Below are positions 1,127-42,049 of a stretch of DNA of 64,000 nt, piece after piece. The DNA is from Leucoraja erinacea. Taxonomy: Eukaryota. The position numbers were made by a program, and so were the translations under genes. The stretch lies in assembly GCF_028641065.1 (NCBI RefSeq), contig NC_073388.1, positions 14,012,001-14,076,000 on the forward strand, given 5' to 3'. The notes under the pieces are model-generated. The model was not told the DNA's origin, ran no database searches, and saw nothing but the letters and a program-made list of their open reading frames with translations. Position 1 is the first letter of the stretch. Each line of letters begins with the position of its first letter.

Positions 1127-1204
1127 ATTAGTTTTAACATATTTTCAATAAAGTGGTGTACACAATACTCAAGATGCACTTACAACCACCAATTGATTTA
1201 GAAT

Positions 1205-2490
1205 AGAACACAGTGCTGGAGTAACTCAGCGGGTCAGGCAGCATCTGCAGAAGGAAGAGATGGGAAATGTCTCAGGTCAGTATCCTTCTTCAGACTGATT
1301 GGAGTGAGTGTGTGGGGGGGAGGGGAGAAAGCTGGACAAGAGGCAGAGCTGGGATAAAGCCTGGTTAGTTTAGTTTAGTTTAGTTTAGAGATACAGCATG
1401 GAAACAGGCTCTTTGCCCCACAGAGTCTGCGCTGACCAGCGATCAGTGTACACTAACACTATCCTACACAGTAGGGACACTTTCCACTTTGCAGAAGATG
1501 TCTTTGGAGTGTGGAAGGAAACCAGAGCACCTGGAGAAAACCTATAGGTCACGAGGAGAATGAACAAAACTCTGTACAGACAGCACTCATAATCAGGATC
1601 GAACCCAGGCCTCCGATGCTGTAAGACAGTAATTCTACCGCTGCGCCACAGTGACGCCCTTAAGTGAAAGGTGGACAACAGTCAGTGGGGGTTGACTGGC
1701 AAATGGATGGATAAAGACGATAGGTGGAAAGGAGACAAAGGTTGTCAGATGTGGAGAGACGAGAAGTGAAATGTGGTCAGGGGGAAGGGGGGGGGTGGGA
1801 GGGGATGATATAGGTGCAAGGAGATGATTGTGGGGAAACTGGGCAAGATAGTGGATGAGAGAGGATGAGAAGAGAGGGGAAGGGGTGTGTTACTCCAAAT
1901 TGGAGAATTCAATGTTCACACCTTTGGGTCATGAGCTTGCCCAAGTGGAATATGAAGTGTTGTTTCTCTGTGTTGCCTGTGGCCTCACTCTGGCAATGGA
2001 GGAGGCCCAGGAGAGAGCTCTTCATCATACACGTTTTCCCAGTATTCCGCCCATCTTTCTTACTCCACCCGCCCCCACCCTAACCTTTCCACCTATATCT
2101 CTTCCTCCGCATTTCCATTCCTACTCTCCTTATTTAACGCTCTTTTGTCTACTTTTGCATCTCCAGCCTTTGTCCACACATCGGTCAATTTAACTCCTAT
2201 TTAACTCCTCCCTCACCTGTATCAACCTATCAACTGCCAGGCTTTGTCCCTCCCCCACCTCTTCTCCAGCTTTCTCTCCCCTACTCCGATCAGTCTGAAG
2301 GAAGGTCCCGATCTTTTCTCTCTGGGTTGGGGGGGGGGGGGGAAACGATGAACCAAGTTCATCTGCAGTGAAGATACACACAAAAAGGCCTCTCCATTCC
2401 TTCCACAGATGCTGCCTGACCCGCTGTGTTACTCCAGCACTCTGCATTTTATTAGACATTCCAGCGTCTGCAGTTACTTATGTCTCCATT
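1205..2490. mobile_element. Inverted pair of Penelope-like 3' ends (1205-2015 minus, 2020-2490 plus), the first interrupted by an HE1 SINE
   Basis: 1895-1970 is the reverse complement of a decayed GIY-YIG C-terminal motif (EQHLIFRLGxLxPxGMNIEFSNL-like); both arms end in the terminal-repeat motif. Confidence 0.65.
1365..1660 (-). mobile_element. HE1/V-SINE
   Basis: tRNA-like head (B box GGTTCGATCC), V-domain, CR1-like tail and (CTAAA)n end. Confidence 0.85.
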
Positions 2491-2905: not shown

Positions 2906-3003
2906 AAGATACACACAAAAAGCTGGAGTAACTCAGCGGGACAGGCAGCATCTCTGAAGGGAAGGAATGGGTGACGTTTCGGGTTGAGACCCTTCTTCAG
3001 ACT
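2906..3003 (-). mobile_element. PLE terminal repeat with an intact minimal hammerhead core (2973-3000)
   Basis: The minus strand reads CTGAAGA-AGGGT-CTCA-ACCC-GAAACGTC; flanked by a duplicated GTTCATCTGCAGTG. Confidence 0.7.
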
Positions 3004-3449
3004 GGACCTTTGTTCATCTGCAGTGCCCTTCATAGTCAAATAGATCATCTTGAGTCACCGGGTTGCAACACGAGGTAAGTCTTTTGACAGAGACTGGAAG
3101 TGCTGGCAAAACCCAGGGACAACTACACCCTAATGAGTCGACTCCCTCCAAATCACAAACCCTTCAGGCAGATTGGATTGTTAGCTGTTGGGAGGGAAGC
3201 CAGTGCAGAAAAAGAGGAGCTAATTAATACTTTACATTCTGTTGCTGGAGCTTAGATCCCTTTTTCTCTTCACTTCGGTTGGCGACCTTACTTGCTGCTA
3301 TCAACATTAAAATGATGGAGTGACTATAGAAATCTGGTATCTATCTTGGATATGGATTCCAGAAATGAAATTTGAGCCACTAATTCATGGCAACTAAACA
3401 TTGAGCGTAAAGGACAATGAAGACTCCGTGTATTCTGTCACTATGTACA

Positions 3450-3745: not shown

Positions 3746-3864
3746 AGACCGAATCACACTGTACACAGGTTCAACTTCTCAGAGGTGTGAGAAGGTGATT
3801 GTGAAGCTGGCAAATAAACAGGATAATTCGAGTGGGATAACCATGTATTATTTTTAATACTTTA

Positions 3865-4370
3865 ATTTAGACTTTAGAGACTTTACAGATACAGTGCAGA
3901 AACAGGTCCTTTGGCCACCCGAGTCCGTGCCGACTAGCAATCGCCCCACTAATGCCCCTGTCCCACTTAGGAAACCTGAACGGAACCCTCGCGTGACTTT
4001 GCGCCCCACCCAAGGTTTCCGTGCGGTTGCCGGAGGTTGCAGGTGGTTGCCGGAGGTTGCAGGTAGTGGAAGCAGGTAGGGAGACTGACAAAAACCTCCG
4101 GGAACCTTGGGTGGGGTGCAAAGTCTCCAGAGGTTTCTGTTCAGGTTTCCTATGTAGGACAGGGGCAGAGCACTATCCTACACACACTAGGGACAATTAA
4201 CCTCCAAACCTGTATGTGTTTGTAGTTTGGGAGGAAACCAGAACACCCAGAGAAAACCATGCGGTCACAGGGAGAACGTACAAACTCTGTACAGACAACG
4301 CCCATAGTCAGGATCGAACTTGAGTCTCTGGTGCTGTAAGGCAGCAGCTTTACTGCTGCGCAACTGTGCC
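3865..4370 (-). mobile_element. HE1/V-SINE interrupted by a MITE
   Basis: SINE sequence is collinear on both sides of the 3953-4167 insertion. Confidence 0.8.
3953..4167. mobile_element. Palindromic MITE family A (TIR TGCCCCTGTCCCACTTAGGAAACCTGAAC), probably PIF/Harbinger
   Basis: Long terminal inverted repeats; inserted at a TAA within a SINE; three other copies in the window. Confidence 0.8.
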
Positions 4371-5625: not shown

Positions 5626-5777
5626 AGACACAAAATGCTGGAGTAACTCAGTGGGACAGGCAGCATCTCTGGAGAAAAGGGATTCCTTCTCTGCAGAGAT
5701 GCTGCCTTTCCCGCTGAGTTACTCTGGGATTTTATGTCTATCTTCGATTTAAACCAACATCTGCAGATCCTTCCTAC
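5626..5777. mobile_element. Hairpin (inverted) PLE terminal-repeat insertion with 18-bp TSD
   Basis: Two opposite-orientation halves; ACATGCT(C/T)TTTTAGAAGT at 5608-5625 and 5778-5795. Confidence 0.7.
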
Positions 5778-7730: not shown

Positions 7731-7879
7731 TCCCCTCGGATCAGTGTGACGGTTCTCCTCTAATCTAAGGTAGACACAAAATGCTGGTGAAACTCAGCGG
7801 GTGAGGCAGGATCTATGGAGAGAGGGAATGGGGGAACATTTCGGGTCGAGACCCTACTGCAGACTGAATCCACTAATCT

Positions 7880-8195: not shown

Positions 8196-8298
8196 ATGGA
8201 TGCATCAGAGCCGCCCAACGCGGTCAGGAGATCCCGCAGCTTCCACTTTAAGAGCCTGACAACATTCCTCGGCAAAATGAGCAACCGAAGAGCAATAG
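8196..8298 (+). CDS. Probable first coding exon of the DLC-family RhoGAP (MDASEPPNAVRRSRSFHFKSLTTFLGKMSNRRAI + G)
   Basis: ctgccATGG Kozak; 34 codons + 1 nt ending at the donor ATAG|GTAAGG. The phase-1 end joins the AG at 54197 to give GAG (E) of E-Q-E-A-K. Assignment is by phase and context, not by homology. Confidence 0.65.
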
Positions 8299-9395: not shown

Positions 9396-11904
9396 CTTGA
9401 GCTGTTGCTATTGGCTTTGACAACTTTGATTCAAGGAGCTGAGAATTTAGCCGTCCCAGGTCACAATCCAACGGCATCTAGGAGGTTTGTAGTAGGTTGG
9501 GTGGACTCATGACCTTGACAGAGAATAGGGTCAGGCCTGGTTATGCTCCCCTCGACCCTATGTTCCATATCTCAGCTTGTATGCGAATACCCGTCCACCA
9601 CCGATTTTCTGGCACCCTTGGCTCCAGCACCTTGATGGATTATCCGTTTTGCCAGACCAACAGAGGTCAGGGCCTCCGAGAGGAATCCGATGGTACGGGA
9701 ACAGTCTGCCTAGGGCGGCTGTCGAGGGGCTGAGATACTAACCAGCAAAGTCATCCTTGGAAATCCGTTATGGGAATGGGACTGCTGTCTCCAGAGCCCC
9801 AGCCGCAGGGGGCAAATGTGACCCACCGATCGACCACGGAAACCCATGTGAGGTTAAGATAGACCATCTCACCCGGCCTAGGTGCGGGAGGACCTCGGGG
9901 AGGTTTCAAGTGTTCTCGTGTAATTTTGTCTGGATTAAAGGAGGTGCTGGACCATCTCGGTGGTGGATGTATAATTTCAAACATTTTGCACTTGTATCAA
10001 TGCGACTTTATGAATGAGTTCATCGTCATAAATATAACACATTTCACATTAGGTGTGTATTTGGAGTATTATTGGAAAGGTGGACCAAGATAATACCACC
10101 TGCCATTCCTTCCTACGCATTGACCCAGATATTACATGTTTTGTTTTCACTGATTGTGCCAGGACATTATTAGCCAGGGTGTGCCGCCATTAATAGAAAA
10201 TAGACACAAAGTGCTGGAGTAACTCAACTGGGTCAGGCAGCATCTCTGGAGAAAAAGGAGGGGTGATGTTTTGGGTCAGCACCCTTTCTCGGACTGAAAG
10301 TAGAGGGGTGGGAAAAGGCCAGAACAAAGCAGGGCCAGCAACAGATGACCAAGGAAGGGTGGAGCCCATAATGGCCAGGACACTGGGATTGTCTGCTCTT
10401 CTGAACATTACCCATTGAGAGCTCTTTGTGTTTATTATCTGCAGCAGAAGGAGCGTGATCCTAACTCTGACAGCTCTAGTGCAATGATGTATGGCAACTC
10501 AGTGAATTCAAATCCATCTCCCAAATGCAGCAGCTGGAAGCAGTCTATAAAATCAATATTACTTAAGGAGACACGTAGTGATAATTGGGCATATATTCTG
10601 ATAGAGATATAGCTCCAGAACCTTCAGCCAGCCATGCTTGCTGCTAACTTGAATGTTAGGTTTGAAGTTTCATTTTGCAGATCCCATGGTGTTAACTTCC
10701 ATCCCATTGCCGGTGCAGTCATCACTGGCGATTCCCTGACTAGCATCAAGACTTTAGTTGATAAATGTGCTCACTTATGAGCACATGCAATGGGGCTGGT
10801 GAGGAGAGTGGTAAAACAAATGAATCCTATGAACCAATTGTAGCTAATCCATGTCTTGCCCCTCCTTGGCTTAGTCAGCTGTCAAACCAGCTTAATACGA
10901 GTGTTTCTGAGTGCTTCTGAGGGTTCGAAACATTCAGTGACTTTTAACACAATTTTAAGTTCAATGGTACTTTTTAGTCCAGCGAAATTTATATACAGTT
11001 CAGTAAGAGTATTCCTGTACATAATCACATCAGATTTAGTACAAGTGTTAAGTAATAGTACGTTGTAATAGTGTACAGACGTCGCCAGGTTTGGTGCCAT
11101 TTTCGAGTTCATGTTGTCATGAGTCCAGAGTTTGTAACTTGGCTACAAAGGCCTGTTGTCTTGGCAGCGTTGGCGGGTTGGCCTGGCCTGGCCAAGCGTA
11201 GATGTTGGAGTTCACCATCGCTGCTCCACCGTTCATGCCATTTCAGGTCTCATCCAGACTGAGCGCTCGGTGTCTTGGAGTGGCCCCCGATCTAGTCAAG
11301 CCCCAGGCTATTGCGGGGCCTCCATTGTTGTGGTGCACTGTGCTGCCTCCTGCAGCCGATACCTCCCCCCTCCCCACACCCCCCTCTTTGCTTTGGTTTG
11401 TACCAAAGATAAGACACAAAGTTCTGGAGCAACACGCGTTTGGTGACGCCATCTTTAATCTCTTCACCCTCCTCTCTGGCTCTCTGGGATGAGCAGGGCT
11501 GGGCTTGGCTGCTGGCCTCCTTACTATTTGCAATACCAACCAATTCCAACAAACCCACTTAAAATAATGCATAAAACTGAACTATATTCAGCTAATATGA
11601 CCTAATATTTAACATAGTCTATCTTAGCACTACTTCACCCGGCAGATTCTCAGTGTTACTGGTGGGGAATTGCTGCATCTTAGGCTTCAGTACAGGAGCA
11701 GATGATGGATCTGTAAGTGGAATGCTGCCAAGAAAAAGCAAGCAAAGAATGTATAGCACTCACAAGGCTTCCACATTTCAATGTGAGCATGCAGAAATCC
11801 TGAACTTGGTGGCAGCTTTATGGGGAAATGTTGGCAGTTTAGTCACGAGCTACTGCATATTCCTGTAAGGCTTATGATCTGTACTTAATATGATCAATGA
11901 GACC

Positions 11905-13060
11905 TCAATATATGTAGAAAGTAACTGCAGATGCTGTTGTATACCGAAGATAGACACAAAGTGCTGGAGTTACTCAGCCGGTCAGACAGCATCTCTGGAG
12001 ATAAAGGATAGATAGGTGACGTTTCGGGACAGGACCTTTCTTCAGGTCTGAAGGAGGTCTGACATTTCAGGCCAGGACCACGTTCCAATTTCCAACGGGG
12101 AGGAGGTGAGCGAGGGAGCGAGGGGGCGAGGGAGCGGGGTAACGCTGGCAACCGCGGGGCGGGGGCGGGGGCGAGGAGCCGGAGCCGGAGCGGGGTAACC
12201 CCGGCAAAGAGGGCGAGGGCACAAGGAGATGGAGAAGCTGGACTTTTGCACAGATCACAAAGCTTTGGAAGAAAACGTAGTAACAAAGAACTGCAGATGC
12301 GGGTTACCTCGCTCTACTATCCCACCCCGTTGCAAGGCTTCACCCCACACCCGTGGTTACCACACTCTGCAAGGAGGGGGGAAGAATGGTGGTAGTAGAG
12401 TGAGATAAACCAGGACAACGGGGGCGGGGATAACCGTTAAAACGGGGAGATGTATGGGGTTAGGAGGGAGAGATAGATCCGCCGTGATTGAATGGCGGAG
12501 TAGACTTGATGGGCCGAATCGTCTAGTTTTGCTCCTAACTCTTATGATCTCATCCGAACAACGGGGGCGTGGTGTAAGCTGGCAACGGGGGGGAGGTGAA
12601 TCCTAGAAATGGGGGGAAGGGGATGTAGAGTGAGGTGATCACGATAACGGGGGTGGGGGTGAGGAGTGAAACAACCCCAGTAACGGGGTGGAAGTATAGG
12701 TAGGCGCTGACGACTCTGGCAACGGTAACACCGGCTGCGGGGCGGGGTAAGGTAACTGGGAATGGGGTTGAGGAGCCGGGGTAACCCTGGCAGCGAGGGT
12801 GAGGCCAACAAGGAGCTGCAGAAACTGGACTTTTGCACAGATCACAAAAGCGATGGAGGAAAATGTAGAAACAAGAAACTGCAGATGCTACTGTACCAAA
12901 AAAAACACGCACAAAGTGCTGGAGTATTCAGTGGGTCAGTCAGCATCTCTGGAGAACATGGATAGGAGATGTTTTGGGTGGTTTCCCCAGGTTGATTATG
13001 GTGGTGGGAAGGGACAAGAAAGCTGGAAAAGATGGAGTGGGCGGGGGTGAGAGATGGTCT
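11905..13060. repeat. PLE terminal-repeat fragments flanking a G-rich degenerate repeat, with a local ~75-bp duplication
   Basis: Terminal-repeat motif at 11920-12046 and 12865-12990; ggacttttgcacagatcacaaa...ctgcagatgc at ~12240 and ~12827; recurring gcaacgggg/ggggtaac units. Confidence 0.55.
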
Positions 13061-13149: not shown

Positions 13150-14610
13150 AATGGGTCAGTGCTAACATTGGTACAGAGTTGTGGGAGAGGAGGCCGCAGT
13201 TTAAGAATAAGGGGTAAGACATTTAGAACGGAGATGATGAAACACTTTTTCACACAGAGTTGTGAATCTGTGGAATTCTCTGCTTCAGAGGGCGGTGGAG
13301 GCCGGTTCTCTGGATACTTTCAAGAGGGAGCTTGATGGGGCTCTTAAAGATACATATTTCTCCAGGGGCATCGTATGATGGCAGCCTCTGCCTACAGTCT
13401 CTGTTTTTCATCTTTTTGTTATTTTTAGTCTAAAAAGTATGTTTTGGAGGTTTCTTAATCTTTTTCTGTGGGAAGGGTAAGGGGGAAACCATTTCTCAGT
13501 CATTTCCTGGTGAAGACGCGTCTGGAGAGAAGGAGCAGGAGTGGGGAACTGGGGGCAGAAACAGTATAAGCAAGTCTTTTGGGGGATGGCAGAGAGGGTG
13601 AATGGTAGCTGTCACATCTGGGGAGAGGAGTAACCCTTAGCAGTGGAGAGAAGAAATGGGTCTGGCATAATTGAAGCATGGAATGGGGGTGGGGAAAGGT
13701 AGCAGGGTACCTCTGAGAACGGAGGAGAAGGACAACCGTGGGAGTAAAAGTAACATTAGCAAATTTGCAGATGACACAAAGCTGGGTGGCAGTGTGAACT
13801 GTGAAGAGGATGCAGGGTGACAGGTTGGGTGAGTGGGCAGATGCAGTTTAATGTGGATAAGTGTGAGGTTATCCACTTTGGTGGCAAAAACAGGAAGGCA
13901 GATTTTCTAAATGAAGTCAAGGTGGGGGAAAAGGGGAAGTACAATGGGATCTGGGGGTCCTTGCTCATCAGTCAATGAAAGTAAGCATGCAGGTACAGCA
14001 GACAGTGAAGAAGGCAAATGGCATGTTGGCCTTCATAACAAGAGGAGTTGAGTATAGGAGCAAAGAGGTCCTTCTGCAGTTGTACAGGACCCTAGTGAGA
14101 CCACACCTGGAGTATTATGTGCCAATCTCCCAATTTGAGGAAGGACATTCTTGCTAGTGAGGGAGTGCAGTGTAGGTTCACCAGGTTAGTTCCCGGTATG
14201 GCGGGAGCTTGTATACTCTGGAATTTAGAAGGATGTGAGGGGATCTTATTGAAACATATAAGATTATGGGTTTGGACACGCTAGAGGCAGGAAACGTGTT
14301 CCCGATGTTGGGGGAGTCCAGAACCAGGGGCCACAATTTAAGAATAAGGGGTAAGCCATTTAGAACGGAGATGAGGAAAAACTTTTTCACACAGAGTTGT
14401 GAGTTGTGGAATTCTCTGCCTCAGAGGGCGGTGGAGGTTGGCTCTGTGGATGCTTTCAAGAGAGAGCCAGACAGAGCTCTTAAAGATGGCGGAGTCAAGG
14501 GTTATGGAGAGAAGGCAGGAGCGGAGTACTGATTGTGGATGATCAGCCATGATTACATTGAATGGTGGTGCTGGCTCGAAGGGCCTACTCCTGCACCTAT
14601 TGTCTATTAT
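13150..14610 (+). mobile_element. CR1 LINE fragments (13150-13350; 13740-14610)
   Basis: SKFADDTKLG, KKANGMLAFITRGVEYRS...RPHLEY and GESRTRGH...LWNSLP motifs, with frameshifts. Confidence 0.88.
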
Positions 14611-16380
14611 ATGGGATGGGTAGCCTTGGCTGCAGGGGAGATTGGGGCAGATCTGGAGAAACCCAGGGAATGTATGGGTTCGAGGAAGAAGGTTAACCTG
14701 GCCTCTGATGGTGGGGCGGGGGGAGGAGTGGGGTAAGCTGGGGAGCTAGTCTGCAGTAATGGGGACCCAGAGCTGTGTAACCCAGTTGAAAGAGGAATGG
14801 GTGTATTGTAACGGTGGAGAAGATATGGGTAATCTGGACTCCCGAGAGAGGAAATATATGCAGCCACTGGTATCAAGTGAATGGGGAACAACAAAATCTG
14901 CGCACTCCCCACTCCCGGATAAGTACATGTTAATTTAATAAATCTTCACCAATATGAACTATCATTTATTTTAAGTTTTCATTTAATAGAGGTGTTATTT
15001 ATTTAAACAATGGGAATGAAATGCATTTGGAGACTTTCAATTGCAGGTGGTGGGGGGTGGGGAAATGTGTTTCACTGTCTTTTTGGAAGTTAGAAACTTC
15101 AAAGTTCATACCTTTGGGTTGTAACTACAAATGGAATACATGAATTATATTCTTCCAATTTGCACTTGGGCTCTATGTAGCTGATCTATCTCTCCCTCCT
15201 AATCCCATTCTCCTGTCTTCTTCCCTTAACTCCTGACACCCGTACCAATCAAGAATCTATCTATCTCTGCCTTGACTTAACTTCCATTGACGACCTCCGC
15301 AACCTTCTGACTAAAGAAATTCCTCCTCGTCTCCTTCCTAAAGGAACGTTCTTTAATTAAGAGGTTATGGTCGCTAATCCTAGTCTCTCCTACTAGTGGA
15401 AACATCCTCTCCCTATGTACACTCTATCCAAGAGGGGACGATGCGACTTGTGGGACCAGTTTGAAGCTGGCAGAATTAGTGAAGGATGATAGATTGGAAG
15501 GAGAAGGTAGTGGGGTGATAGTGAACACACTGTTCTGTCTCGTGAGAAAAGGCTTGAGAACAGGCATGCAGTAAATGGAGTAAATGTGACTGAGGGCTCC
15601 ATCAGAGGGAAAGTTTATTGTCCCCCCCCCCCCCCACCCCATTCTGTTTTCTGTTAAGTAAGCAAGCATTTATATCAATGCGAGTGTGTGTTTATAAATT
15701 TTTTTTTAAAACTTTGTAAAGCACCTGAGCTCTTGTGTAAACGATCAGTTGATAAAATATTTGTTTTAGTTTGATACATGCAGGAGATGGATGGCAAGAA
15801 AAGTTCATCAATGGCAAATACTATCCTCAGGAATTTACTGTATCTCCCCCTGAACAAATCTTTGCATAATGGAGGGTTCTTTAGGAAGCAGTCCCCTTCA
15901 TTAATTTATGTTTGGGTGAAAGCTTCTTTTCATCCAGATGTGCAATTAAATATACAACTGCGTGTAATTAGGCTTTACTGAAATCTAGATTGACATTCCT
16001 TTGTATTACTGAAGGAGTGCTGCACTGTGAGAAATGCTGTTTTTCATATGAGATATTAAACAAAAGTTATATTTTGCTGCTTGGATGGATGCAAAAGGTT
16101 ATATGGCACTTTACTGTAAATGCGCTTCTTTACCCTGGTTAAAATTTCTCAAGCATTGAATACTTAAATATTACCTGGTTATGAATAGGTTGTTTGCAAG
16201 AGCTTCCCGAGTACTTTACCACTATGGTTCCATTTCATATTAAATTAAAATCTTATTTAGCCTGGACAAATATAGACCACCTCCAATCTAGACTAATTAA
16301 TAGCTGGTGTAAATTCACCATTGTCTAGGAGATCTACAATTTTGGCTAATATTTTTTCCATGCTAATATTTATTTTTAAT

Positions 16381-17272
16381 CAAGATGGCGGACTGCGGGG
16401 GTGATGCGCCGTCGTGTATGGCCGCTCCTCCTGCAGTCCGTCCTTTCTCCCTTTTTTATTTTTATTTTTAGTCCTTAGTTGGAAGTCTTCTTTTATGTGG
16501 TGGGTGGGGGGGGGGAAGGGGGAAACTGTTTAAATCCCAGTCCTACCTGGTCGGAGAAGCGGTTTTCTTCCAAACCGCTTCTTCGTCCTCTCTGTGCGGC
16601 CTACCGTCGAGCTGGAGCAGCGCTGGAGCGGCGTTTCCTGCCGGGACTGCGGGGCTTCGCCGGCGGTACAGATGCTGGGACACCAACACCAACGTGGAGC
16701 GGGCGATGCCTTACCGGGTCGCCTTCGGGTAAGCTCCGGAGCACTGGGAACATCGCTGTGCTGCGGCTGCAGAGCGTCCAGCCGCGGGCGGGCGGCACTG
16801 GATTTCAACACCGCGGGGCCTGGTGTCCGAGTTCGCCAGTGTCAGCGGTCCGGCCAGCGCGGCCTGAGAACTTTGGACATTGCAGTCTTCAGGGAGGAAG
16901 CGGCCGCTTCAGTCCAGGCCGCTGAAAAATCGTTCACCCGACGGCGATGATCCGGCTTCGCGGCAGAGGGCCTGAGAACATCGAGTTGGCTGAGGAGGCC
17001 ACATATAGACCCCGACCTCGGGTGGACTATGAGGGGGAGAACTGGATAATTTTAGCGCCTTCCCTCACAGTGAATTCTGCTGTGGGGGGACGTTTCTTGT
17101 TGATTTCTATAGTGTACTGTTCTGTGTCTTTTTTCTCTTTTTTGTTTTTATGGATTTATTGACATTTGATCTGTTCAATTAATTTAATCAATCTCTGTAA
17201 AGCACTTTGGTTCAAATACTGGTTTTGTTGAAAAGTGCTATATAAATAAAGATTATTATTATTATTATTATT
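16381..17272 (+). mobile_element. CpG-rich non-autonomous element with an L2-type 3' tail
   Basis: Starts CAAGATGGCG, has a GC/CpG-rich body and ends aaagcactttg...aaaagtgctatataaataaa(TTA)n; no RT ORF. Confidence 0.6.
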
Positions 17273-18669
17273 GAAGAAAGGTCCCGACCCGAAACGCCAC
17301 CCACCTCTTTCTCCAGAGATGTTTCCTGACCCGTTGAGTTACTCCAGCAGTTTGCGTCTTATCTTTGGTACAAACCAGCATCTGCAGTTCTTTGTTTCAG
17401 CAAAACATTGTTGCTGTGTCATTTGTAACATCTGACAATTTCCTGCACCTTTATAGGGAACCCTACACGCAACTCGGGCTGTAAATATCATTGTAAGATA
17501 TCGGTAGGAACCAGAAATACTAATAGCAGTTAAGTGCCTTATTTGGGTTGTTGTAAGGAGAGGATTTATCTGTGGATATACCTTATTGCTGCTGTCACTG
17601 AAGCACTTTATCATTAGGCCCATTACCAACGAGGCCTAGAGCTATGAATTCATTTTCAGAGGGTTTTAAGTTAGTCGTAAGGGAAATCTCCTTTGAGGTG
17701 TCAGAAAATATGCTTTTACCTTTGGGCAATCCTCTGTAATTTAACCTTCAAATGACAAGGAACACAGAAGCAGGAGCGGGTCCTGAACAGGAGAATGAGA
17801 AGAGTGTAGAGTTACTGAGCCACATGACGATACAGAGCACAAAATCTTATCTTCTGCAACATAAAAGCAATATCTGAGAAGGTTCAAGTACTCAAATGTA
17901 TATTCCTCGAGTATTATGTAGATTCCTGAAGTCTGACCAGAAGCGATGTTTTAGGAATTCTATTGTTTGGTTTGTGTTGGTGAGAACAGCCATGATCACA
18001 ATGAATGACGGTGCTGGCTCGAGGGGCCGAATGGCCTCCACCTGCACCTATTTTCTATGTTTCTAGAATACATTTCACAGATCAGATTCCTTCCAGTCCA
18101 ATGCAAGTGATGTGCTACATTTTATCTGTGACCAACCATGGGTGTTGGCAGGTGATAGACGCGCATGTTCATTAGGGCTCCCCTATTCATTTCAATCTCC
18201 GTGGAAGCAACTTCTCAACCTGCGGGTTTATGAGGCATTTTTGAACAAATGGGATGCTTGGAGGTGGAAGGCCCTGCGGACTGCACTTGCGTTATATACA
18301 CGTCAGAATGAGAAGCAATAACAATCCACAAAGGTTTGTGGCCACAGGCATGTGATCTTTAACATCTTCATGACTCACCAGTCTCAAAACTTTTTGTACA
18401 CCACTGAAATTCTCTATTCTTCTTTATATTCCTCTATTTGTCTTTTGATTTAAAAAAAAATTCCCAATTGTATGAAGGACATGAAGGTGACCAATTGTCC
18501 TTGTTGTATCTTGCACCGAAGTGCTTGAGGATAAACGGCAGGACTTGTTGCAACTTGATCCTGCTGCAGGGTATCAGTGAGAGGAAGCTGAATCCTGGGA
18601 AAATCTACATCCCAGACATGACTGCTGGATGTATTCTCCAGTGGGCCAGTGATTGCTGGAAGCCACACT

Positions 18670-19195: not shown

Positions 19196-20029
19196 TAATC
19201 AGATGGTCTCCTACCTGTAATGTAATGCAGCTGATGTTACGTGGTAGCCAAGTGCATCTTGTACAAATTTGTAAAGACTCCTGATTAGATACAAATTTAT
19301 TAATTTAGTAGTGGTGCACATGGTAATGGGAGTTGAACGAGACGCACACAACAGTTGAGAATTAAGCATTGTTAGGTTATAGCAAATGTTGAACAATAGT
19401 GCCAAAGGACCATTGTACAAGATGGTGCCTGAAAGACATACAGTATTCATTAAGTGGGAGGCTTCTGACCGTAATGTAAATAACAGTTTTTGAATAATGT
19501 GATGAGATGAGTGGGGAGTCTAATGATCAGATGCGTAAGTTCTGCATCACTTCCCCGGCAAAAAGAGGAACTGGGAAGAAAACCATGTGAAAGAAAACAA
19601 CAAACGGTGCAGCATTCGTAGCTAAGGGGCTTTCTGATGATCTCATCTCCTGCCCGGCAGAAATGGTCGCAGCAGATTTAACATAACTCGGTGCACCCTC
19701 CTTCTCCTGACTCTGCAAGAAAAGTCTTGGATTTCCCACCAAGGCTGCATCTGTCGTAGCTCCATCTGTAGCTCTGCATCTCCCTGATGGGAAAGCCACT
19801 TCTTCATTCAGCCATTGCTTAGAACTGTGGTAGAGATTTGAAACACTTCTCAACTTCTCGTGTGCTTTGGCCTGAGTGCAGGTTAAATAGTCTAGATCGG
19901 AGGGATAAATGATGTCCTCTTTTTAAATCTTTAACATCTTCACATTGACCTCTAATGCTGTCTATTATAGCAACTTTGTTGTCGAATTCTCTCCCCATCC
20001 ATCTTCATTGTGGAACTGTCAACTCCCAG

Positions 20030-20320
20030 GGATTGTTCGATGTACCCTACAAAGAGGCAGGCATAGCTGGGGCCCATATGGGTGCCTATGGCTATGCCTT
20101 GAAGTTGGAGAAGTCGAAGGAGAAGTTGAATAAGGGTCTCGACCCGAAACATCACCCATTCCTTCTATCCAGAGATGCTGTCTGGCCCGCTGAGTTATTC
20201 CAGTATATTCTGTCTAGTTCAGCAATTTAAAAACGAAGGGTCTCGACCCGAAACCTCACCCATTCCATCTATCCAGAGATGCTGTCTGGCCCGCTGAGTT
20301 ACTCCAGCATTTTGTGTCTA
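20030..20320. mobile_element. Penelope-like RT fragment (minus) followed by two tandem PLE terminal repeats (plus)
   Basis: ORF 19952-20155 contains GIAIGTHMGPSYACLFVGYIEQ (PLE RT motif G-x-AMG-xxx-GPSYA); agggtctcgacccgaaac at ~20133 and ~20237. Confidence 0.75.
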
Positions 20321-20669
20321 CAATGATAAAACCCTTGCTTGTTCTGACACTTCCATGTCTTCACTGCTGTACGTTCTGGTTTTACCAGTGTTGACTTACT
20401 AGATTTAACAAACCAGGTGAATTATTTATTTCTATCTCCTTTGGATTATGTTATAATAAATCCAGGAATCCAAATCGTGAAGTTGAAAGTTTCAGCAGAG
20501 TGCGGACAGTCCAATCCCGCTATTCTTTGCACGTGACTTTCTATTCTCATTTCATTTGATTGAACAGGGAAAGAACTGGGGAAGAAATATTTTTGAATGG
20601 TCACAGCTTTCAATTTAATCTGTGGTTGATGACGATTAAGGTTTTTTCCAAAATAGACTTGGAAAAATA

Positions 20670-22454: not shown

Positions 22455-22895
22455 TATAACCATATAACAATTACAGCACGGAAACAGGCCATCTCGACCC
22501 TTCTGGTCCGTGCCGAACACATAATCTCCCCTAGTCCCATACACCTGCGCTCAGACCATAACCCTCCATTCCCTTCCCATCCATATAACTATCCAATTTA
22601 TTTTTAAATGATAAAAACGAACCTGCCTCCACCACCTTCACTGGAAGCTCATTCCACACAGCTACCACTCTCTGAGTAAAGAAGTTCCCCCTCATGTTAC
22701 CCCTAAACTTCAGTCCCTTAATTCTCAAGTCATGTCCCCTTGTTTGAATCTTCCCTACTCTCAGTGGGAAAAACTTTTCCACGTCAACTCTGTCTATCCC
22801 TCTCATCATTTTAAAAACCTCTATCAAGTCCCCCCTTAACCTTCTGCACTCCAAAGAATAAAGCCCTAACTTGTTCAACCTTTCTCTGTAACTTG
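22455..22895 (-). mobile_element. Young CR1 LINE 3' end
   Basis: Uninterrupted ORF ([25 protein letters not shown]...WNELP); closely similar to 38435-38862. Confidence 0.9.
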
Positions 22896-23394
22896 TCCTT
22901 GAATGATTCCTGCTTCTGATCAGCAATTGGTATTTTGGTTGAAAAGTACATAAGTGAAGGAGGTATAAGCAAATGCTGGTTCACAAAATCTGACACAGAG
23001 TACTGGAGTAACTCAGCGGGTCTGGAGAACATTGATAGGTGACATGTCGTGTTGGGACCAAAGATAAATAATCCTCGGGCAACTAATCATTTCTCAGCTA
23101 AGCTTTTTGACCCGAGGAGAATTGCAGTGATCCGTGGTTTCTCAACTTGACTTGTATGCCAAGAGTCAGGCTGAGAAACCATGGACCATACAATTCTTCT
23201 TGTCCAAGAGTTTACTGAAAAAATGGCTAGTTGCCTGAAGATTTGTAATCTCTGTAGAATTGTAGCAGAACAGGGGCGCAGGGAATCACAGAGGGGGGAG
23301 GGGAGGGGGGGCATTGAAAGAAGCTCTCACCTTCGAGTGAGGAGGTGAACTTCTTCAAAGTAGGCCATACTTTGAGGAGATTTAGCACTCCACA

Positions 23395-23605
23395 ACGTGC
23401 TGGAGTAACTCAACGGGTCAGGCTACAGTCTGAAGAAGAGAACTTGACCCAAAGTGTCGCCCACCTCGTCTTCCAGAGATGAAGAAGGGGTTTGGCCCGA
23501 AATGTTGCCTATTTCCTTCGCTCCATAGATGCTGCTGCACCCGCTGAGTTTCTCCAGCAGTTTTGTGTACCTTCGATTTTCCAGCATCTGCAGTTCCTTG
23601 TTGAA
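23395..23605. mobile_element. Cluster of PLE terminal-repeat fragments
   Basis: ctgaagaag...accc and gaagaaggggtttggcccgaaatgttgcc followed by the terminal-repeat body. Confidence 0.65.
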
Positions 23606-24324
23606 CACTTCCAGAGATTATGCCCAATATTCCAGCACTTTGTTCTCTACAAAATATCTGAGCCAATTCTTGAGTTTCTCTTCTCCTTTGGGGATGGGCG
23701 GTGTGGCTCTTTCTGTGCTGCCACCATTCTTGTTTAGCATGCAGGTCTTGTTTCCTTTAGCCATGTTTTGTGTTTCGATTGGAGTACTGTTTTAGCTCTC
23801 TGTTTTGGGCCGGACTGGCATTTAAAACCTCACCCATGGCTGATGGTTTCAATCCAAATCTTTTCAAGTCTGACATCAACTTTCCACATAGTAGATTCTT
23901 CTCTCATGTGATTCAGAGGCAACACAGCAAGTATGTAAAGGTTGGCAACATACAGCTACTGACAGCAAGGAAACTACTTCAACATTCCATGTCACTGCCT
24001 ATGCCAATCATGATAAGATGTCACAAAAACAATAGCTTGAGGGATGGGCTTCTCCCTCCCAGCTTCTAACCGTCACCTTCTGCTTTATCTATTTCTCTCC
24101 TTTGTCTTATTATACTTTTCTCTTCTGTATGTTGTTGATCTCACCAGCTTCCTTCAGCATCTTTCCTTCTTCATCCAACAATTTCTTTCCCATGGTTACA
24201 CAAAAAAGCTGGAGAAACTCAGCGGATGCAACAGTATCTATGGAGCGAAGGAAATAGGCAACGTTTCGGGCCGAAACCCTTCAAAGGGTTTACACATCTA
24301 CTATGTGTAATTTCTTTCCCATGA

Positions 24325-26247: not shown

Positions 26248-26725
26248 AGGGACTAGTCCTTTGGCCCACCGAGTCCACACTGACCCAGCAGATCACCCCG
26301 TATACTATGCTACACACTAGGGACAATTTTATCGAAGCCAATTAACCTACAAACCTGTCTGGCTGGAGCGTGGGAGGAAACTCCGGAGCACCTGTGTAAA
26401 ACGAATGCGGTCACAGGTCACACAACGTATATATTCCATACAGCACCCGTAGTCAGGATCGAACCGGGGTCTCTGGCGCTGAAAGGCAGTAATGCCCCTG
26501 TCCCACTTAGGAAACCTGAACAGAAACCTCAGGAGACTTTGCGCTCCACCCAAGGTTTCCATGCGGTTCCCGGAGGTTGCAGGTAGTGGAAGCAGGTAGG
26601 GAGACTGACAAAGACCTCCGGGAACCGCACTGAAACCTTGGGTGGAGCGCAAAGTCTCCTGAGGTTTCCGTTCAGGTTTCCTAAGTGGGACAGGGGCTTA
26701 ACTCTACCGCTGCACCTCCATGTCG
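26248..26725 (-). mobile_element. HE1 SINE interrupted by a MITE
   Basis: The SINE segment ggcagTAActctacc is split by the insertion. Confidence 0.8.
26493..26698. mobile_element. MITE family A
   Basis: ~70-bp TIRs; TAA on both sides (26490-26492, 26699-26701) where the SINE has a single TAA. Confidence 0.88.
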
Positions 26726-27274
26726 CCCTCATTGAAGAGATCAGACTGACTAAGGAAGACAGTACACATGCTGAGTCATTATTGGCTGTCTGTGCAAAAT
26801 GTTTACATACATTTTCCTCAAAGGGAGAGCAGTTATGCAAATAAGTCATGTGGTGAGTGGGTGTTGGGACGTGATGTGTGTAAGGATCACGTGTATTGAG
26901 CCACCGGCTCTTGAATGTTAAATAAAGCAAGCAAACAAAACACTGCAGGTGCTGGAAATCTGATATAACACAAGCTGGAAATATTTAATAATTCAGGCAG
27001 CATCTGAGCATAGAAACAAAAAAGAGACTCTACCCTCAGCTCAGTGGGCAATCTAAAAAGTTTGAGTTAAGATTATCAACAATGCTACATCCTTAGATCA
27101 AAGTCAGCCCATCAGTTAATTTTAAACATTAGAGTTTTAGTGTCATACAGCAGGAAGCAATCCACTTGCCCACACCAAACAGCATAATCAATTGGAGAAT
27201 GGAATATGCTTTATTTTGAGCATTCCAACATCATGCAATCCTAGTCAAGTATACAATGGGTGGATGCAGAGAAT

Positions 27275-28585: not shown

Positions 28586-30279
28586 TTAGACGAGGACTAG
28601 TTTATCCTAAAAATAACCATCCCTGGTCGTAACATGTCCGTACCAAATAGGGGGGGGGGGTGCCTTGGAGCATTCATAGCAACCTGAAATGGGAAGGAGA
28701 GGGGAAAGTGTATTGTGTGTTAGCCTCTTCCTTGCTGCAACACATTGGCACGTCCTTTACTCCTTGCAAGCACTGTACCAACAATGAGGCTCTTAGAGGC
28801 CGAAGGAATGAGCAGGCAGCCGTCATCCTTGGCTCCACACACTGCGGGCCTTGTTCCGGGATCCTGTCAATAGGTAATTCATGGGCAGTCTATGCGTCTC
28901 TTTCCAATTTCCTGTGAGAAGTTCAGCCTGTGAGAGGGCTCTTTGATTCCAATTTCCTCGCAGTCAAAAGGTCGCCATAGGAGAATGCAGTTTGCGCCTG
29001 CATGAAAGAGAAGCAGCGATACATTTAAAAAAAAAAACCCTCTTTAACCAGTGTTCAACTTTTCATAATATCTAGCCCGCAATCAGTGACGTTTTAAAAA
29101 AAATGTGTTTCTTAAAAATATTTCTAAGAGTACTTTTATATGGAACAATTCAAGTTGGGTGTGGGGTGAAAGGATTTAGCCCACACCTTATCCAGTATTG
29201 GCTGTATAAGTTACAATCCTGAGACAATGAACAAAAAGTTAAAAAAATAAAAAAAAATGCATTCTTCCATTTTATAAATAGTTTTTTTTTTTTGCCAATT
29301 TTCTTTCTAGTTCCATCATTTCGTATTTTGAGGGCTCTCATTGTTCTTAAATGGAAAGCTAGAAATTGCTGCTAATTATGTTACTGAATATGTTTCTAAT
29401 TCACATACTAGAGGTTGACGTCATCACTACACAGAACAGTAATGACCCATTATAACCTATGGTGCAACAGCAATGCACTTGGGAACAAATGACTGTATTT
29501 ATCAACATTGAACTTGCCTATATTCATAGTTATTGTGTGAATGTAACATAGCTCTATATAGAAGGAATGTCAAATGTACACAATTTGCAAAAAACACACT
29601 TTCTTGCCCAAGACAATAGACGTGCTTTCTATCCTATTTTCGATTCTAATTGCAATTTGCAATGAACTGCAGTAAAGTTGCTTTGGTTAACTTCTTATTT
29701 TCCCTATACTCAAGCTTTGTTCTACCTGCAGAATGTAGAAACAAGCAAGTGCAGATACTGGTTTACAAAAAGCGAACACAAAATGCTGGAGCAATGCAGC
29801 GTGTCAGTCAGCATCTCTGGAGAACATTAGGTAACATTTTGGGTCGGGACCCTTCTTCGGTTCTATGTTCATTTGTTCTGTGAAATCGCTTTTTCCATAT
29901 CAAATTTGATTGCACTTCAAGTGAAAGCTGAAAGAATTGTATAAGGACCATCCTCGGTACATATGACCATTAAATAAAATACTCAAATTAGAAAATATAC
30001 CTGGGATACTCGAGCTTCGGTTTGTCGGTTTCTTATATTAATAATCTCCCTTTTTTAGGGTAGTTTTGTAGGTTTCCAATGTATATGTTTTTCACACAAA
30101 TTAATCATTATACAGTCCATGCACAAGAACTTGACTAATTTTTCTGAAACGGTCTTCATTCTAATGTTTTCTTTCTGACCTGTCAGAATGGATGGGGGAT
30201 ATCCTCCTATTAAAATTGGTCATAGCATATGTTACTGCTCATTAGTTACTACAGTATTACACTCGGTTACACATGTTTT

Positions 30280-31344: not shown

Positions 31345-31429
31345 TGTAGACTTTCTTGATTAGCAGAAGACTTAATATTCAGCACCTTGTTGGTATCTGG
31401 AATGCATTGCTCAATAGAATGATGGACTG

Positions 31430-31992
31430 TCTTATGAAGAAAGATTGGTTAGACTTGGTTTATACTCTCTAGAATTTAGAAGATTGAGAGGGGATCTTAT
31501 AGAAACTTACAAAATTCTTAAGGGGTTGGAAGGCTAGATGCAGGAAGATTGTTCCCGATGTTAGGGAAGTCCAGGACAAGGGGTCACAGCTTAAGGATAA
31601 AGGGGAAATCCTTTAAAACCGAGATGAGAAGAACTTTTTTCACACAGAGAGTGGTGAATCTCTGGAACTCTCTGCCACAGAGGGTAGTTGAGGCCAGTTC
31701 ATTGGCTATATTTAAGAGGGAGTTAGATGTGGCCCTTGTGGCTAAGGGGATCAGGGGGTATGGAGAGAAGGCAGGTACGGGATACTGAGTTGGATGATCA
31801 GCCATGATCATATTGAATGGCGGTGCAGGCTCGAAGGGCCGAATGGCCTACTCCTGCACCTATTTTCTATGTTTCTATGGAAGCAGATCTATTGATGTTC
31901 CAAAGGTAACCCCTTTAAATCAGCCATGATCACTGAATGGTGGTGCTGGCTCGAAGGGCCAAATGGCCTACTCCTGCATCTATTGTCTATTA
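31430..31992 (+). mobile_element. Young CR1 3' end plus a duplicated tail piece
   Basis: [23 protein letters not shown]...RVVNLWNSLP; 3'UTR ends tttctatgtttctatg; tail repeated at 31920-31992. Confidence 0.9.
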
Positions 31993-38434: not shown

Positions 38435-38862
38435 GGTTGAACAAGTTAGGTCTTTATTCTTTGGAGCGCAGAAGGTTAAGGGGGGGACTTGATAGAGGTC
38501 TTTAAAATGATGAGAGGGATAGACAGAGTTGACGTGGATAAGCTTTTCCCATTAAGAGTAGGGAAGATTCAAACAAGAGGACACGGCTTGAGAATTAAGG
38601 GACAGAAGTTTAGGGGTAACATGAGGGGCAACTTCTTTACTCAGAGAGTGGTAGCTGTGTGGAATGAGCTTCCAGTGGAAGTGGTGGAGGCAGGTTCGAT
38701 TTTATCATTTAAAAATAAATTGGATAGGTATATGGACGGGATAGGAATGGAGGGTTATGGTCTGAGTGCAGGTAGATGGGACCAGGCGAAAATAAATGTT
38801 CGGCACGGACTTGAAGGGCCGAGATGGCCTGTTTCTGTGCTGTAATTGTTATATGGTTATAT
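38435..38862 (+). mobile_element. Young CR1 3' end
   Basis: ORF 38489-38845 is nearly identical to the 22531-22926 peptide. Confidence 0.9.
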
Positions 38863-39847: not shown

Positions 39848-40280
39848 TGATGACACGCTGCAATAAGTCACTCCCATCAGCACTGCTGAGTTTATTTGAA
39901 GTCACTCAGCCTGAAGTCGGCTTTTTCCTCAGCTTTGCCATGGAATTACTTGGCATCAAATTAGAATCGTGGAGAGCAGCGGTGACTTTAGATCTACTTG
40001 TTGTCGGGGCTGTAGCCTTGTGAATCCGGATGGTGGGATGATCGTGAGGGACGGCAGTAAATCAGGTTGGAATTGGCTGCTGAGTTCTTTCTAAAGCATC
40101 TGTCTGGAGTCACATTCTTCAGACAAAATAGACGCACCGTATTCCCGAATTCGGGAGCTGGATAATTGATTCTTTTCTTTGTTGGCCGTGAGGGATGCGG
40201 GTGGGATGGGATATGTGGCCATGGGGTAATAAGGTGGGAGGAAGGGGCGGATAGGGGTGAGAAATAATCATTTGAGCTGA

Positions 40281-40515
40281 ACACTGAGTACTGGAGTAAT
40301 TCAGAGCGTCAGGCAGCATCTGTGGGGGTGGTGGCAATGGATAGGGACGTTTCAGTTTGGGGGCCCTTCACGCTGAAGCCTTGAGTCTGGAGAAGTGTCC
40401 CGGCCCGAAACGTCACCTGTCCATTCCCTTTGCAGATGCTGCCTGACTCTCTGAGTTCATCCAGCACTTTGTGTTTTGCTCCGAGATTTCAGTACCTGCA
40501 GTTCTTTGTGAGTCT
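40281..40515. mobile_element. Hairpin PLE terminal-repeat insertion
   Basis: Opposite-orientation halves; ATCATTTGA duplicated at the flanks. Confidence 0.65.
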
Positions 40516-40587
40516 GTGATCATTTGATCTATTCATTTCCCACTGGGTCGGGTATCACAGCAGGGTATGGAAACGTACATCACTTTC

Positions 40588-40996
40588 ACAAATGCTTTAA
40601 CTCCCCTTCCCATTCCCACACTGACCTTTCCGTCCTGGTATTTAGCTTGGGCAGCTTATAACCCAGTGGCATGAATATTGATGTTTCTAACTTCAACCTT
40701 TGAATCTCCTCTCCCCACACTATTCGCCGTACTAGTTTCACTGTTGTCCTGTTGATTTTCATTGTCTGTATAACTCGTTACCACGGCCCACAGCCAACAA
40801 TGGCCTGTTTCCTTGACCATCGTTACTTTTTTATATATCTTTCATTAATTTGTTCTATGTATCTCAATATCATCGCCTGTTTCCCTTTCCCCTGACTCTC
40901 GGACTGAAGAAGGATCTTGACCCAAAACGTCACCCATTCCTTTTCTCCAGAGAGGCTGCCTGACCCGCTGAGTTACTCCAGCATTTTGTTTGTCTA
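40588..40996 (+). mobile_element. Penelope-like element 3' end: GIY-YIG C-terminus, 3'UTR and hammerhead-bearing terminal repeat
   Basis: Encodes FNSPSHSHTDLSVL and SLGSL*PSGMNIDVSNF; CTGAAGA at 40904; 11-bp TSD ACATCACTTTC (40577-40587, 40997-41007). Confidence 0.8.
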
Positions 40997-42049
40997 ACAT
41001 CACTTTCTCTCAATGGGCATTTCTTCAAAGCATGTTTGGCAGGCAAAACATAAGCACAGAAACGCAACTGTAATCTGTCCCAAGCTGCTAGACTGCACGA
41101 GCAGGTCTATTCCGCATCTTCTGAAGACCAGATACTGGTTATTAGACAGTAAATAGTAACCCTGTCTTAAGTCTCACCCGGATCTAGACTGTGGTTTGCA
41201 AAAATTGCCGTCGACAAGCCACCGTGCCCAGCCTCTGAAATGAAAATAGAGAAGGTTGGAAATGGGTTGAGTATTAGTCTGCTTCAAACCATTCCAAAAA
41301 AATCAAATACTGCAGATGCTGACATCTGAAAAGGCTGGACATTCTTTAAAGGGCAGCTGGCGTCTGCAAGGGGAAGGGAGGGGGTGAGGCGAGGGAACCA
41401 AGCAACTAAGATAGAACCAATTCAGAAAGAACATCAGTCTGAAGAAGGGACTCGACCCAAAACGTCGCCCTTTCCTTCTCTCCAGAGATGCCGCCTGTCC
41501 CGCTGAGATACTCTCGCATTTTATGTCTACCTTTGAATTAAACCAGCATCTGCTGTTCTTTCCTACAGAAGATAGAAAGAACCCTTCCCTGAAATGCATT
41601 TTTGTCCTGCCCTCTTCCTCCTATTGATGAGGGAATTGGGAAAAGGTATAAAGTTAGTGGAAATTTTCAAGGTCTTGAGTATCATGGCCACGCTCCCAGG
41701 TTTCTCCAGCATTTTTGTCTACCTTATTCTTAAGGGGCGAGCCAGAGAGTTACTGACCATTGTATTTTACTCGTGCTGAAGTTATGGCAGTATTGTGGTC
41801 AAAGATCTTGGGTTATTGTTTCAGTTTAGGTTAATATTGTCATAGGTTAACTTTGTTTTGCACGATATCCAAACAGATCAGATATACTAAATGTAAATAC
41901 TGTCAAGTCAAACTCGAGTATAACAGATAGAGTAAAAGGTAAGGTAGAGAGTGCAGAACATTGTTCTCAGCAATGTAATGGATTTTGGACCTTTTTTGAC
42001 TTGCAACATGGTGCGGGAGCAAGGTGACTCTTTGCATGTAGATTGGTAC

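Follow-up and report, generated by a model that had tools for sequence, protein, structure and literature searches.

We find that a 64-kb stretch of DNA from the little skate, Leucoraja erinacea (hereafter the window), contains a dispersed family of repeats which are almost certainly short copies of the hammerhead-bearing end (pseudo-LTR, pLTR) of a skate Penelope-like element (PLE), truncated and of the EN+ type. It appears probable overall that these copies of the PLE end arose when RNA, likely uncut, underwent target-primed reverse transcription, and that they are now likely decaying without function. The repeats are real, were rightly recognised as PLE-derived in a preliminary description of this DNA, and are ordinary, their 5′ edge and one-sided tails being a modest lead.

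Extent of the repeat family

A search of the window with the 28-base motif returned nine matches at three or fewer mismatches, compared with 0.00 expected from 100 shuffles. The first round of nhmmer, with a starting profile of 20 seed copies, gave 45 family pieces and none in the reversed-window control; one further iteration, which defines the family, gave 44 pieces in 30 clusters, amounting to 3968 bases or 6.2% of the 64-kb window, with 23 pieces on the plus strand and 21 on the minus strand. G12 is covered by 35 of the 44 pieces and the whole core is spanned by 20 copies, which makes the preliminary figure of approximately 25 for this dispersed family a fair one. All 18 coordinates given with that figure fall in family members, the copies at 1096, 7838, 29845 and 63345 actually being on the minus strand although they had been left unmarked. 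Classing into subfamilies took in the 28 of 44 pieces that were of sufficient length, and the median divergence from the subfamily's own majority was 10% for A (11 copies), 7% for B (four copies) and 17% for C (13 copies).

1016-1122, 10182-10297, 12874-12987 and 22965-23059, minus strand: single copies (profile search)
29744-29863, 45050-45161, 51673-51777 and 63287-63374, minus strand: single copies (profile search)
17271-17392, 57333-57457, 59355-59470 and 62966-63082, plus strand: single copies (profile search)
43797-43923, plus strand: two-piece copy (profile search)
11394, 26942 and 41700: family fragments at these positions (profile search)
41434-41560, plus strand (sense): copy with tail, G12 changed
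20123-20347, plus strand: two copies in tandem with a period of 104, neither with an intact core

We found no description of the skate family in the literature searched, although Repbase and Dfam lay outside that search and the family may already be named; a word search of the little skate genome paper (PMC10115646) did not find 'Penelope' in its main text. A recent survey (10.64898/2026.07.22.740005) sampled one cartilaginous fish, according to its accessible portion, and its supplements may bear on the novelty of the skate family. The family is nevertheless a known kind of element, with a pattern published since 2014, to which it is an added member.

Origin in a Penelope-like element

Remnants of PLE coding sequence, several of them joined to motif copies, lie in the window:

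40578-40700, plus strand: broken PLE endonuclease C-terminal remnant, with an internal deletion and one stop codon
40701-41003, plus strand: pyrimidine-rich 3′ untranslated part, then a motif copy (C3 at 40904, G12 changed)
1181-2030, minus strand: second, longer PLE remnant, with endonuclease C-terminus (2016-1939), untranslated part and motif copy (1298-1181)
2050-2478, plus strand: opposite arm of the 1181-2030 remnant, with untranslated part, motif start (2290-2308), interruption and a remainder with tail
20027-20107, minus strand: PLE reverse-transcriptase (RT) remnant, inverted, abutting the copy at 20123
15086-15124, minus strand: third short endonuclease-terminal remnant, without an adjoining motif copy

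The aligned part of the first remnant (40596-40700) matches residues 337-389 of the shark protein P0080 with an E value of 0.014 and an 18-residue gap, and this remnant, like the untranslated part, is multi-copy sequence in all four public runs. In the second remnant, 2016-1939 is 50% identical to residues 348-373 of P0080 (E 5.8e-4), and the untranslated stretch that follows is again rich in pyrimidines. The 31-residue frame at 20018-20110 on the minus strand gave 75 protein matches at E values of 0.001 or less; among the 12 of these that were scanned, several carry RVT_1 or GIY-YIG and two, P0059 and P0053, carry both, while P0004 and P0060 are unrelated. The shark proteins (Chiloscyllium P0076 and P0077, Stegostoma P0080) were reached by way of one match to the RT remnant, and 20098-20033 is 82-86% identical to P0076 and P0077 over 21-22 residues. 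The endonuclease and RT remnants alone gave no Pfam match, and the 41-residue endonuclease remnant gave no homologue in a word-seeded search and no alignment to P0059. A full-length PLE was not found within the 64-kb window, and the start of the ORF, the promoter and the clade rest on relatives.

The preliminary description had linked the motif to a GIY-YIG C-terminus near 40588-40996, and the remnant at 40578-40700 does lie upstream there. It had also proposed a high-copy, PLE-derived family with a minimal type-I hammerhead motif, which the remnants, together with the target-site duplications, inverted pairs and tails described below, bear out; on the evidence of sequence, there is very little doubt that the repeats derive from a PLE. 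The relatives P0059, P0078 and P0082 carry both RVT_1 and GIY-YIG. Neptune is the likely clade, because relatives (P0059, P0078, P0079, P0081 and P0082) carry a zinc-finger motif in the RT-EN linker, a region that lies outside the window; this finger marks Neptune and Nematis (accessible portion of PMC8557442).

Several further observations concern these remnants. The Stegostoma protein model P0080 reads on from the endonuclease across the untranslated part and closes with residues 498-519, which align weakly with the translated motif at 59326-59391 (13 of 22 residues, E 0.18), a hint that sharks have the same layout. Two related stretches, 12888-12772 and 12300-12187 on the minus strand (85% over approximately 115 bases), extend beyond the tail and may be either the start of the PLE ORF or a long 3′ extension of another subfamily. 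A short interspersed repeat at approximately 1365-1650, following a short simple repeat, splits the untranslated part of the 1181-2030 remnant and is therefore younger than that copy. Finally, approximately 60 bases are shared by 2325-2387 and 2860-2922, the latter comprising the 3′ junction and target flank of the insertion at 2906-3011; they are found again within helix II of the older copy (2290-2478), as either a templated insertion or an assembly artefact.

The hammerhead motif and its state of preservation

2973-3000, minus strand: minimal type-I hammerhead motif, fitting the consensus in Fig. S3 of PMC4209133 (accessible rows)
58847-58874, minus strand: second motif passing the hammerhead descriptor, with a 3-bp helix II, a 3-bp helix I and a wobble palindrome
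11920-12047, minus strand: copy with tail and a broken motif at 12018-12045

Every core base is present at 2973-3000, with C3 at 3000, the extra base at 2993, G12 at 2980 and C17 at 2973, and the predicted cut lies between 2973 and 2972. Helix II is formed by 2992-2989 with 2984-2981 (4 bp) and the palindrome is 4 nt long (2977-2974), while helix I is only 2 bp (3001-2972 and 3002-2971), as it is in the family majority; the elements CUGANGA, extra base, G10.1-C11.1, GAAA and NUH are likewise present both in this copy and in the majority. The core was thus correctly reported as intact, and a copy-by-copy check found it to be the one fully intact example among the 35 pieces covering G12. The same had been said of 12018-12045, wrongly: G10.1 is changed to A, helix II keeps two of four pairs and helix I has no pairs. 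A descriptor allowing wobble pairs was passed by two of the 20 whole-core copies, those with C3 at 3000 and at 58874, compared with a background of 0.0-0.03 matches per simulated window, and it is 58847-58874, rather than 12018-12045, that is the other passing copy. Both are on the minus strand, antisense to STARD8.

Positions 15.1-16.1 are palindromic without a stable helix III in the monomer, and the predicted self-duplex has a free energy of -3.1 kcal/mol. Helix I is paired in 47.5% of cells over the 20 copies, with a predicted probability of 0.005 or less in monomer folds. For the 2973-3000 copy these folds, which cover neither a dimer nor help from protein, give helix II a probability of 0.12-0.29 and put the cost of forcing the hammerhead arms at 2.7-5.0 kcal/mol; the predicted helices I and II are weak because the core pairs with the downstream pyrimidine run. 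A competing hairpin, joining the 5′ strand of helix II to positions 1.1-1.4, is predicted with a probability of 0.71 in the majority of subfamily A, 0.21 in that of C and 0.13 in that of B, which rests on four copies mostly lacking the 5′ core. Its covariation was not above that of shuffled alignments in the 20 copies (390 of 500 as high), and this modelled hairpin is kept as a lead.

Stem I/II covariation had been offered as a check on the motif, its absence counting against the idea. None above shuffles was seen in the 20 copies: the covariation score for helices I and II was 0.095 against 0.114 when shuffled, with 420 of 500 shuffles as high, and neither helix separately beat shuffles in these 20 decayed copies of one family. 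RNAalifold likewise gave no consensus pairs in the 20 copies. Missing covariation is expected of dead copies, and therefore the ancestral ribozyme is not disproved by it. The Rfam covariance models, also suggested as a check, returned no hammerhead at E values up to 10 among the 19 and 14 matches of two scans, and pattern scans of metagenome and viral contigs did not find the motif.

Two of the Rfam hits, at 5635-5730 and 53874-53980, read as microRNAs, a reading that we rejected, as both are head-to-head pairs of the family. A separate repeat family with long inverted ends (49370-49595, 3854-4177 and 26347-26984) matched MIR820 below the gathering score and looks like a miniature inverted-repeat element. 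The window also holds many 3′ fragments of another retroelement (13987-14508, 22555-22893, 31421-31764, 38437-38788, 42147-43066 and others), which were seen by way of chimeric proteins and which we presume to be a LINE of CR1/L2 type.

Decay of the core and the host gene STARD8

8196-8298, plus strand: first coding exon of STARD8, 34 of 34 residues identical to P0091
54197-54268, plus strand: STARD8 exon encoding the first half of the SAM domain
56800-56881, plus strand: STARD8 exon encoding the second half of the SAM domain

The three exons encode residues 1-86 of P0091, the Leucoraja erinacea protein named STARD8 isoform X1, and every residue in the exon parts agrees; exons 2 and 3 are matched by the solved SAM domains of STARD13 and DLC1. 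Most of the family copies lie inside the 46-kb first intron. The 2973 copy had been called antisense to the gene; its orientation is indeed opposite, but the first coding exon found begins 5.2 kb further downstream, and the copy may lie outside the pre-mRNA. A search of sequencing runs with 53700-57500 listed no RNA run that contains it, which says nothing about expression.

In the 20 whole-core copies, non-CpG core positions are changed in 22 of 220 cells (10.0%), compared with 72 of 748 cells (9.6%) in those downstream columns that are at least 80% identical (p 0.90). At the CpG sites of the core, 21 of 80 cells are changed, in agreement with the earlier remark that core mutations often fall at CpGs. 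One of the 20 copies is unchanged at 15 core positions, with 1.9 expected. We regard it as highly probable that the copies decay neutrally, with no sign of selection for or against the ribozyme, and nearly all of them, judged by their mutations, are likely to be inactive.

The claim of many working cores in one pre-mRNA is not supported by the sense copies. A further reading is that the host uses the intronic copies as ribozymes, cutting or regulating the STARD8 pre-mRNA. There are indeed 11 whole-core sense copies downstream of the first coding exon, and those at 40387, 40904 and 41439 lie within approximately 1.1 kb of one another. However, none of the 11 passes the descriptor, compared with two of the nine antisense copies; this absence, and with it any strand bias of intact cores, is not significant (p 0.19). 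With neutral decay, no strand bias and no covariation, we consider a host function of this kind extremely improbable.

As a separate observation, the head-to-head unit at 53831-54164 sits just upstream of STARD8 exon 2, and its duplication (53815-53830 and 54165-54180) overlaps a branch-point-like stretch 17-32 bases before that exon.

Anatomy of the insertions

2906-3011, minus strand: whole 106-base insertion holding the 2973-3000 motif, with a short 3′ end and no tail
2892-2905: left copy of the target-site duplication of 2906-3011 (right copy 3012-3025, 14 of 14 identical)
7769-7868, minus strand: 100-base single insertion, 13-base duplication (one mismatch), core broken
24195-24308, minus strand: 114-base single insertion, 15-base duplication, 5′ end within the core
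5626-5777: head-to-head pair lacking the hammerhead, 18-base duplication (one mismatch), tail on the plus arm only
53831-54164: head-to-head unit whose interior holds a 33-base tandem (5.1 copies, without the CUGA box), flanked by a 16-base duplication and tailed on the plus arm alone
40279-40518: head-to-head pair, 12-base duplication (one mismatch), tail on the plus arm only
23391-23598: three pieces arranged head-to-head, of which the last plus piece alone is tailed
52930-53150: two 3′ fragments paired head-to-head, only the plus arm being tailed
58772-58984: head-to-head pair, the minus arm bearing the 58847-58874 motif

Target-site duplications of 13-18 bases flank five of the 30 clusters. 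In 150 random trials a score of at least 12 was reached four times, and one further duplication (12 bases, one mismatch) falls within this random null; a convincing duplication is absent from 25 of the 30 clusters. Neighbours within 120 bases of each other are arranged head-to-head in six cases and tail-to-tail in none (p 0.03). In all seven inverted pairs (the six head-to-head and 1181/2387) exactly one arm is tailed, an outcome with a chance probability of approximately 0.004 at the tail rate of the window (12 of 35). The 3′ ends form two classes approximately 33 bases apart, lying at +85 to +98 in 21 of the 44 pieces and at or beyond +114 in 15 (the model ends at +121), and the longer arm of 5626-5777 extends approximately 33 bases further than the other.

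Duplications of variable length, inverted arms and a tail of 30-40 bases at one end are features of PLEs, and all are present here. Inverted arms with a one-sided tail are a described PLE signature (PMC3846280 and PMC8557442, accessible portions), and head-to-head junctions have been explained by self-priming on an antisense template (PMC3846280), an alternative to the priming from both target strands proposed below.

The 5′ edge and the nature of the template

The 5′ starts of 33 of the 44 pieces lie between -5 and +9 of C3, whereas the cut site at +28 has none of the 44 starts within three bases of it, and the closest are a pair at +32. Such a pattern points to uncut RNA as the template, because cut RNA would end the cDNA at +28. 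The profile model for 5′ ends itself begins approximately five bases upstream of C3, and the upstream flanks were therefore checked directly: of 20, 15 are unrelated sequence and five are pyrimidine-rich untranslated parts, the all-versus-all comparison of flanks having missed diverged untranslated parts that were recovered later.

In four public runs mapped to 40560-41070, depth rises 10.7-, 2.3-, 6.4- and 17.1-fold at 40902, but depth over a contig does not measure copy number, and because the subfamilies diverge upstream, this step is inflated and overstates the share of short copies. Loose ends were inspected among the 24 listed, with 1544 more existing. Those before 40904 number 4828 reads in run X24, 1760 in X1 and 1698 in X17, and are mixed flanks that share their last five bases, with an agreement of 0.35-0.38; those of run X22 agree at 0.55 and resemble the upstream part of another subfamily. 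We do not count the loose ends at 40925 and 40943 as 5′ ends, as their letters run into the motif and reflect mismatches to the reference copy. No place with many molecule ends at the proposed start was seen among those listed for the four runs, nor is there a pile-up of read ends, which fragmented libraries would rarely show.

Reads were placed at a rate of 42 690 of 12 895 792 in X24 and 38 610 of 17 596 208 in X22; 98% and 93% of the placed RNA reads continue into unlike sequence, which is what passengers in host RNA would do. Run X22, of unspecified library chemistry, has an excess of minus-strand reads. G12 is kept in 48-66% of placed reads, and many genomic copies may therefore keep a core.

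These reads bear on the suggestion that the family is retrozyme-like, spreading through ribozyme-cut, circularised RNA. No joint at the cut site appears among the 15 of 269 read joints listed, from libraries that were not made for circles, and the backward joint with the most support (969 reads in X24), which links 40983 to 40925, avoids the cut site and defines a unit without the CUGA box. The window's tandems at 20123, 43797 and 53916 contain no complete hammerhead (0 of 3), there is no 5′ end at the cut site, and the 2-bp helix I hardly pairs in monomer folds. On the other side, the motif fits the minimal hammerhead consensus, the G12 share of the reads is substantial, and animal retrozymes have been proposed to derive from PLE pLTRs (10.64898/2026.07.22.740005, accessible portion). 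We conclude that the family is not a retrozyme, because core bases decay as fast as the others, covariation shows no excess, helix I has 2 bp and no tandem has intact cores, and we judge spread by cut and circularised RNA very unlikely.

A tandem derivative of approximately 66 bases (40925-40983) is itself seen in RNA, with the 969 reads at 183 starts in X24, 128 reads in X22 and weak contigs in X17; it lies elsewhere in the genome.

A proposed route of insertion and its rivals

We propose that the copies were inserted by target-primed reverse transcription of RNA which the ribozyme had not cut. Reverse transcription would start inside the RNA at two sites, approximately 95 and 130 bases downstream of C3, giving the tail-less and the tailed 3′ ends, respectively. 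A start at the copy of these sites near the RNA 5′ end would run off at a fixed end and leave a short copy of 100-135 bases, a start at the 3′ copy would give the rarer copies that reach the untranslated part and the endonuclease, and priming from both target strands would give head-to-head pairs with one tail.

The fixed RNA end, with run-off at the 5′ edge of the hammerhead, is the least secure step, and we put its chances at slightly less than even. It might be caused by a transcription start at that edge or, alternatively, by a splice acceptor. In Drosophila virilis, the accessible text of PMC4209133 places the end of a pLTR intron at the 5′ edge of helix I, and Penelope has an internal TATA-less promoter (PMC2377424, accessible portion). 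A start site is favoured over splicing because the loose ends of three runs contain no shared upstream exon; the edge bases themselves fit both an initiator and a splice acceptor after a pyrimidine tract. The seven bases from -5 of C3 match the initiator consensus, YYANWYY.

The same edge would also be explained if the short copies were self-standing non-autonomous elements, each with an internal promoter and copied by the PLE protein, so that short copies beget short copies. This shares the PLE origin with our main explanation and differs in the template. The sharp 5′ edge common to the copies, the initiator-like bases there and the division into three subfamilies (median divergence 7, 10 and 17%) all speak for it, as do the internal promoter of D. 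virilis Penelope and the finding in Adineta that the pLTR alone sufficed for mobilisation in trans (PMC3846280, accessible portion). However, subfamilies A (40900) and C (10297 and 12987) contain copies that continue upstream into PLE sequence, a large number of copies begin within the core and lack the initiator-like bases, and the placed reads run on into unlike sequence in the manner of passengers in host transcripts; we think this reading unlikely.

A third reading places the cause in the enzyme: reverse transcriptase working on full-length RNA would fall off, or join by microhomology, where the hammerhead meets the pyrimidine tract. Heavy 5′ truncation is known for PLEs (PMC8557442, accessible portion; PMC8969392), the ends are scattered from -5 to +9 rather than at one base, and a long hairpin is predicted to close near C3 in both the 2973-3000 copy and the subfamily A majority. 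Yet many ends would be expected in the 200 bases upstream if truncation depended on length, and depth there in X24 is 313 at most, compared with 10 169 in the first bin of the element, a gap that subfamily divergence inflates. Such a truncation hotspot seems to us improbable, to about the same degree as self-standing copies.

Returning to run-off from uncut RNA, a bolder and rather doubtful form of the proposal is that the skate PLE hammerhead is switched off by design and that the short copies represent 'strong-stop' products. On the 3′ side of the cut, the strand would have become a second copy of the helix II partner, a long hairpin would hide the core, and helix I would have shrunk to 2 bp, so that the RNA stays whole; reverse transcriptase would then prime nearest the cap and run off the start site at the ribozyme edge, mass-producing insertions of 100-135 bases. 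If this were true, the genome would be a natural map of PLE transcription and reverse-transcription start sites, and would test directly whether PLEs can spread in vivo without hammerhead cleavage.

These observations touch on the open question of what the PLE hammerhead is for: insertions whose starts lie just ahead of the core and in no case at the cut, with one-sided tails in inverted pairs, agree with an in vitro result of 2024, the copying of uncut RNA from two internal starts (PMC11167929, accessible portion). For annotation, the family should be recorded as PLE ends, and not as SINEs, microRNA hairpins or functional intronic ribozymes.

Comparison with known systems

The papers compared here are cited from their accessible portions. 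Minimal hammerheads in the pLTRs of metazoan PLEs were described by Cervera and de la Peña in 2014 (PMC4209133), and the skate family resembles them in having CUGANGA, an extra base before G10.1, the G10.1-C11.1 pair, GAAA and a palindrome at 15.2-16.2 with loop 3 absent. Their copies run to thousands, mostly single and truncated, with some near each other on opposite strands, as in the skate. The 2-bp helix I of the skate family is at the low end of their range (typically 3-5 bp), although the Culex, Oikopleura and several Drosophila rows of Fig. S3 also show 2 bp; cartilaginous fish are absent among the rows of that figure examined. The skate family differs from this set in its predicted competing hairpin.

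The in vitro system of Frangieh et al. (2024, PMC11167929) uses PAc, the Poseidon element of Anolis carolinensis. Unprocessed RNA is its main substrate, and reverse transcription starts internally at two sites that flank the tail, giving, as in the skate family, two classes of 3′ end downstream of the hammerhead, separated by approximately 30-40 bases. Its template is uncut RNA and both target strands are extended, as we propose for the skate. PAc belongs to the Penelope/Poseidon clade, whereas the relatives of the skate family carry a linker zinc finger of the Neptune/Nematis type, and a fixed 5′ edge of short copies is not discussed for PAc in the accessible text. Neptune EN+ PLEs (Craig et al. 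2021, PMC8557442) have an RT followed by a C-terminal GIY-YIG domain, as do relatives of the skate family, and share with the family itself inverted, 5′-truncated arms with a one-sided tail.

The animal non-LTR retrozymes (Cervera and de la Peña 2020, PMC7229834; Li et al. 2026, 10.64898/2026.07.22.740005) are similar to the skate family in being non-coding, in carrying a type-I hammerhead and in their tie to PLE pLTRs. They form tandem repeats with complete, mostly canonical hammerheads and give circular RNAs, an active retrozyme being defined as a tandem in which two or more consecutive units have complete hammerheads (10.64898/2026.07.22.740005); the skate family, in contrast, consists of dispersed single copies and inverted pairs with broken cores.
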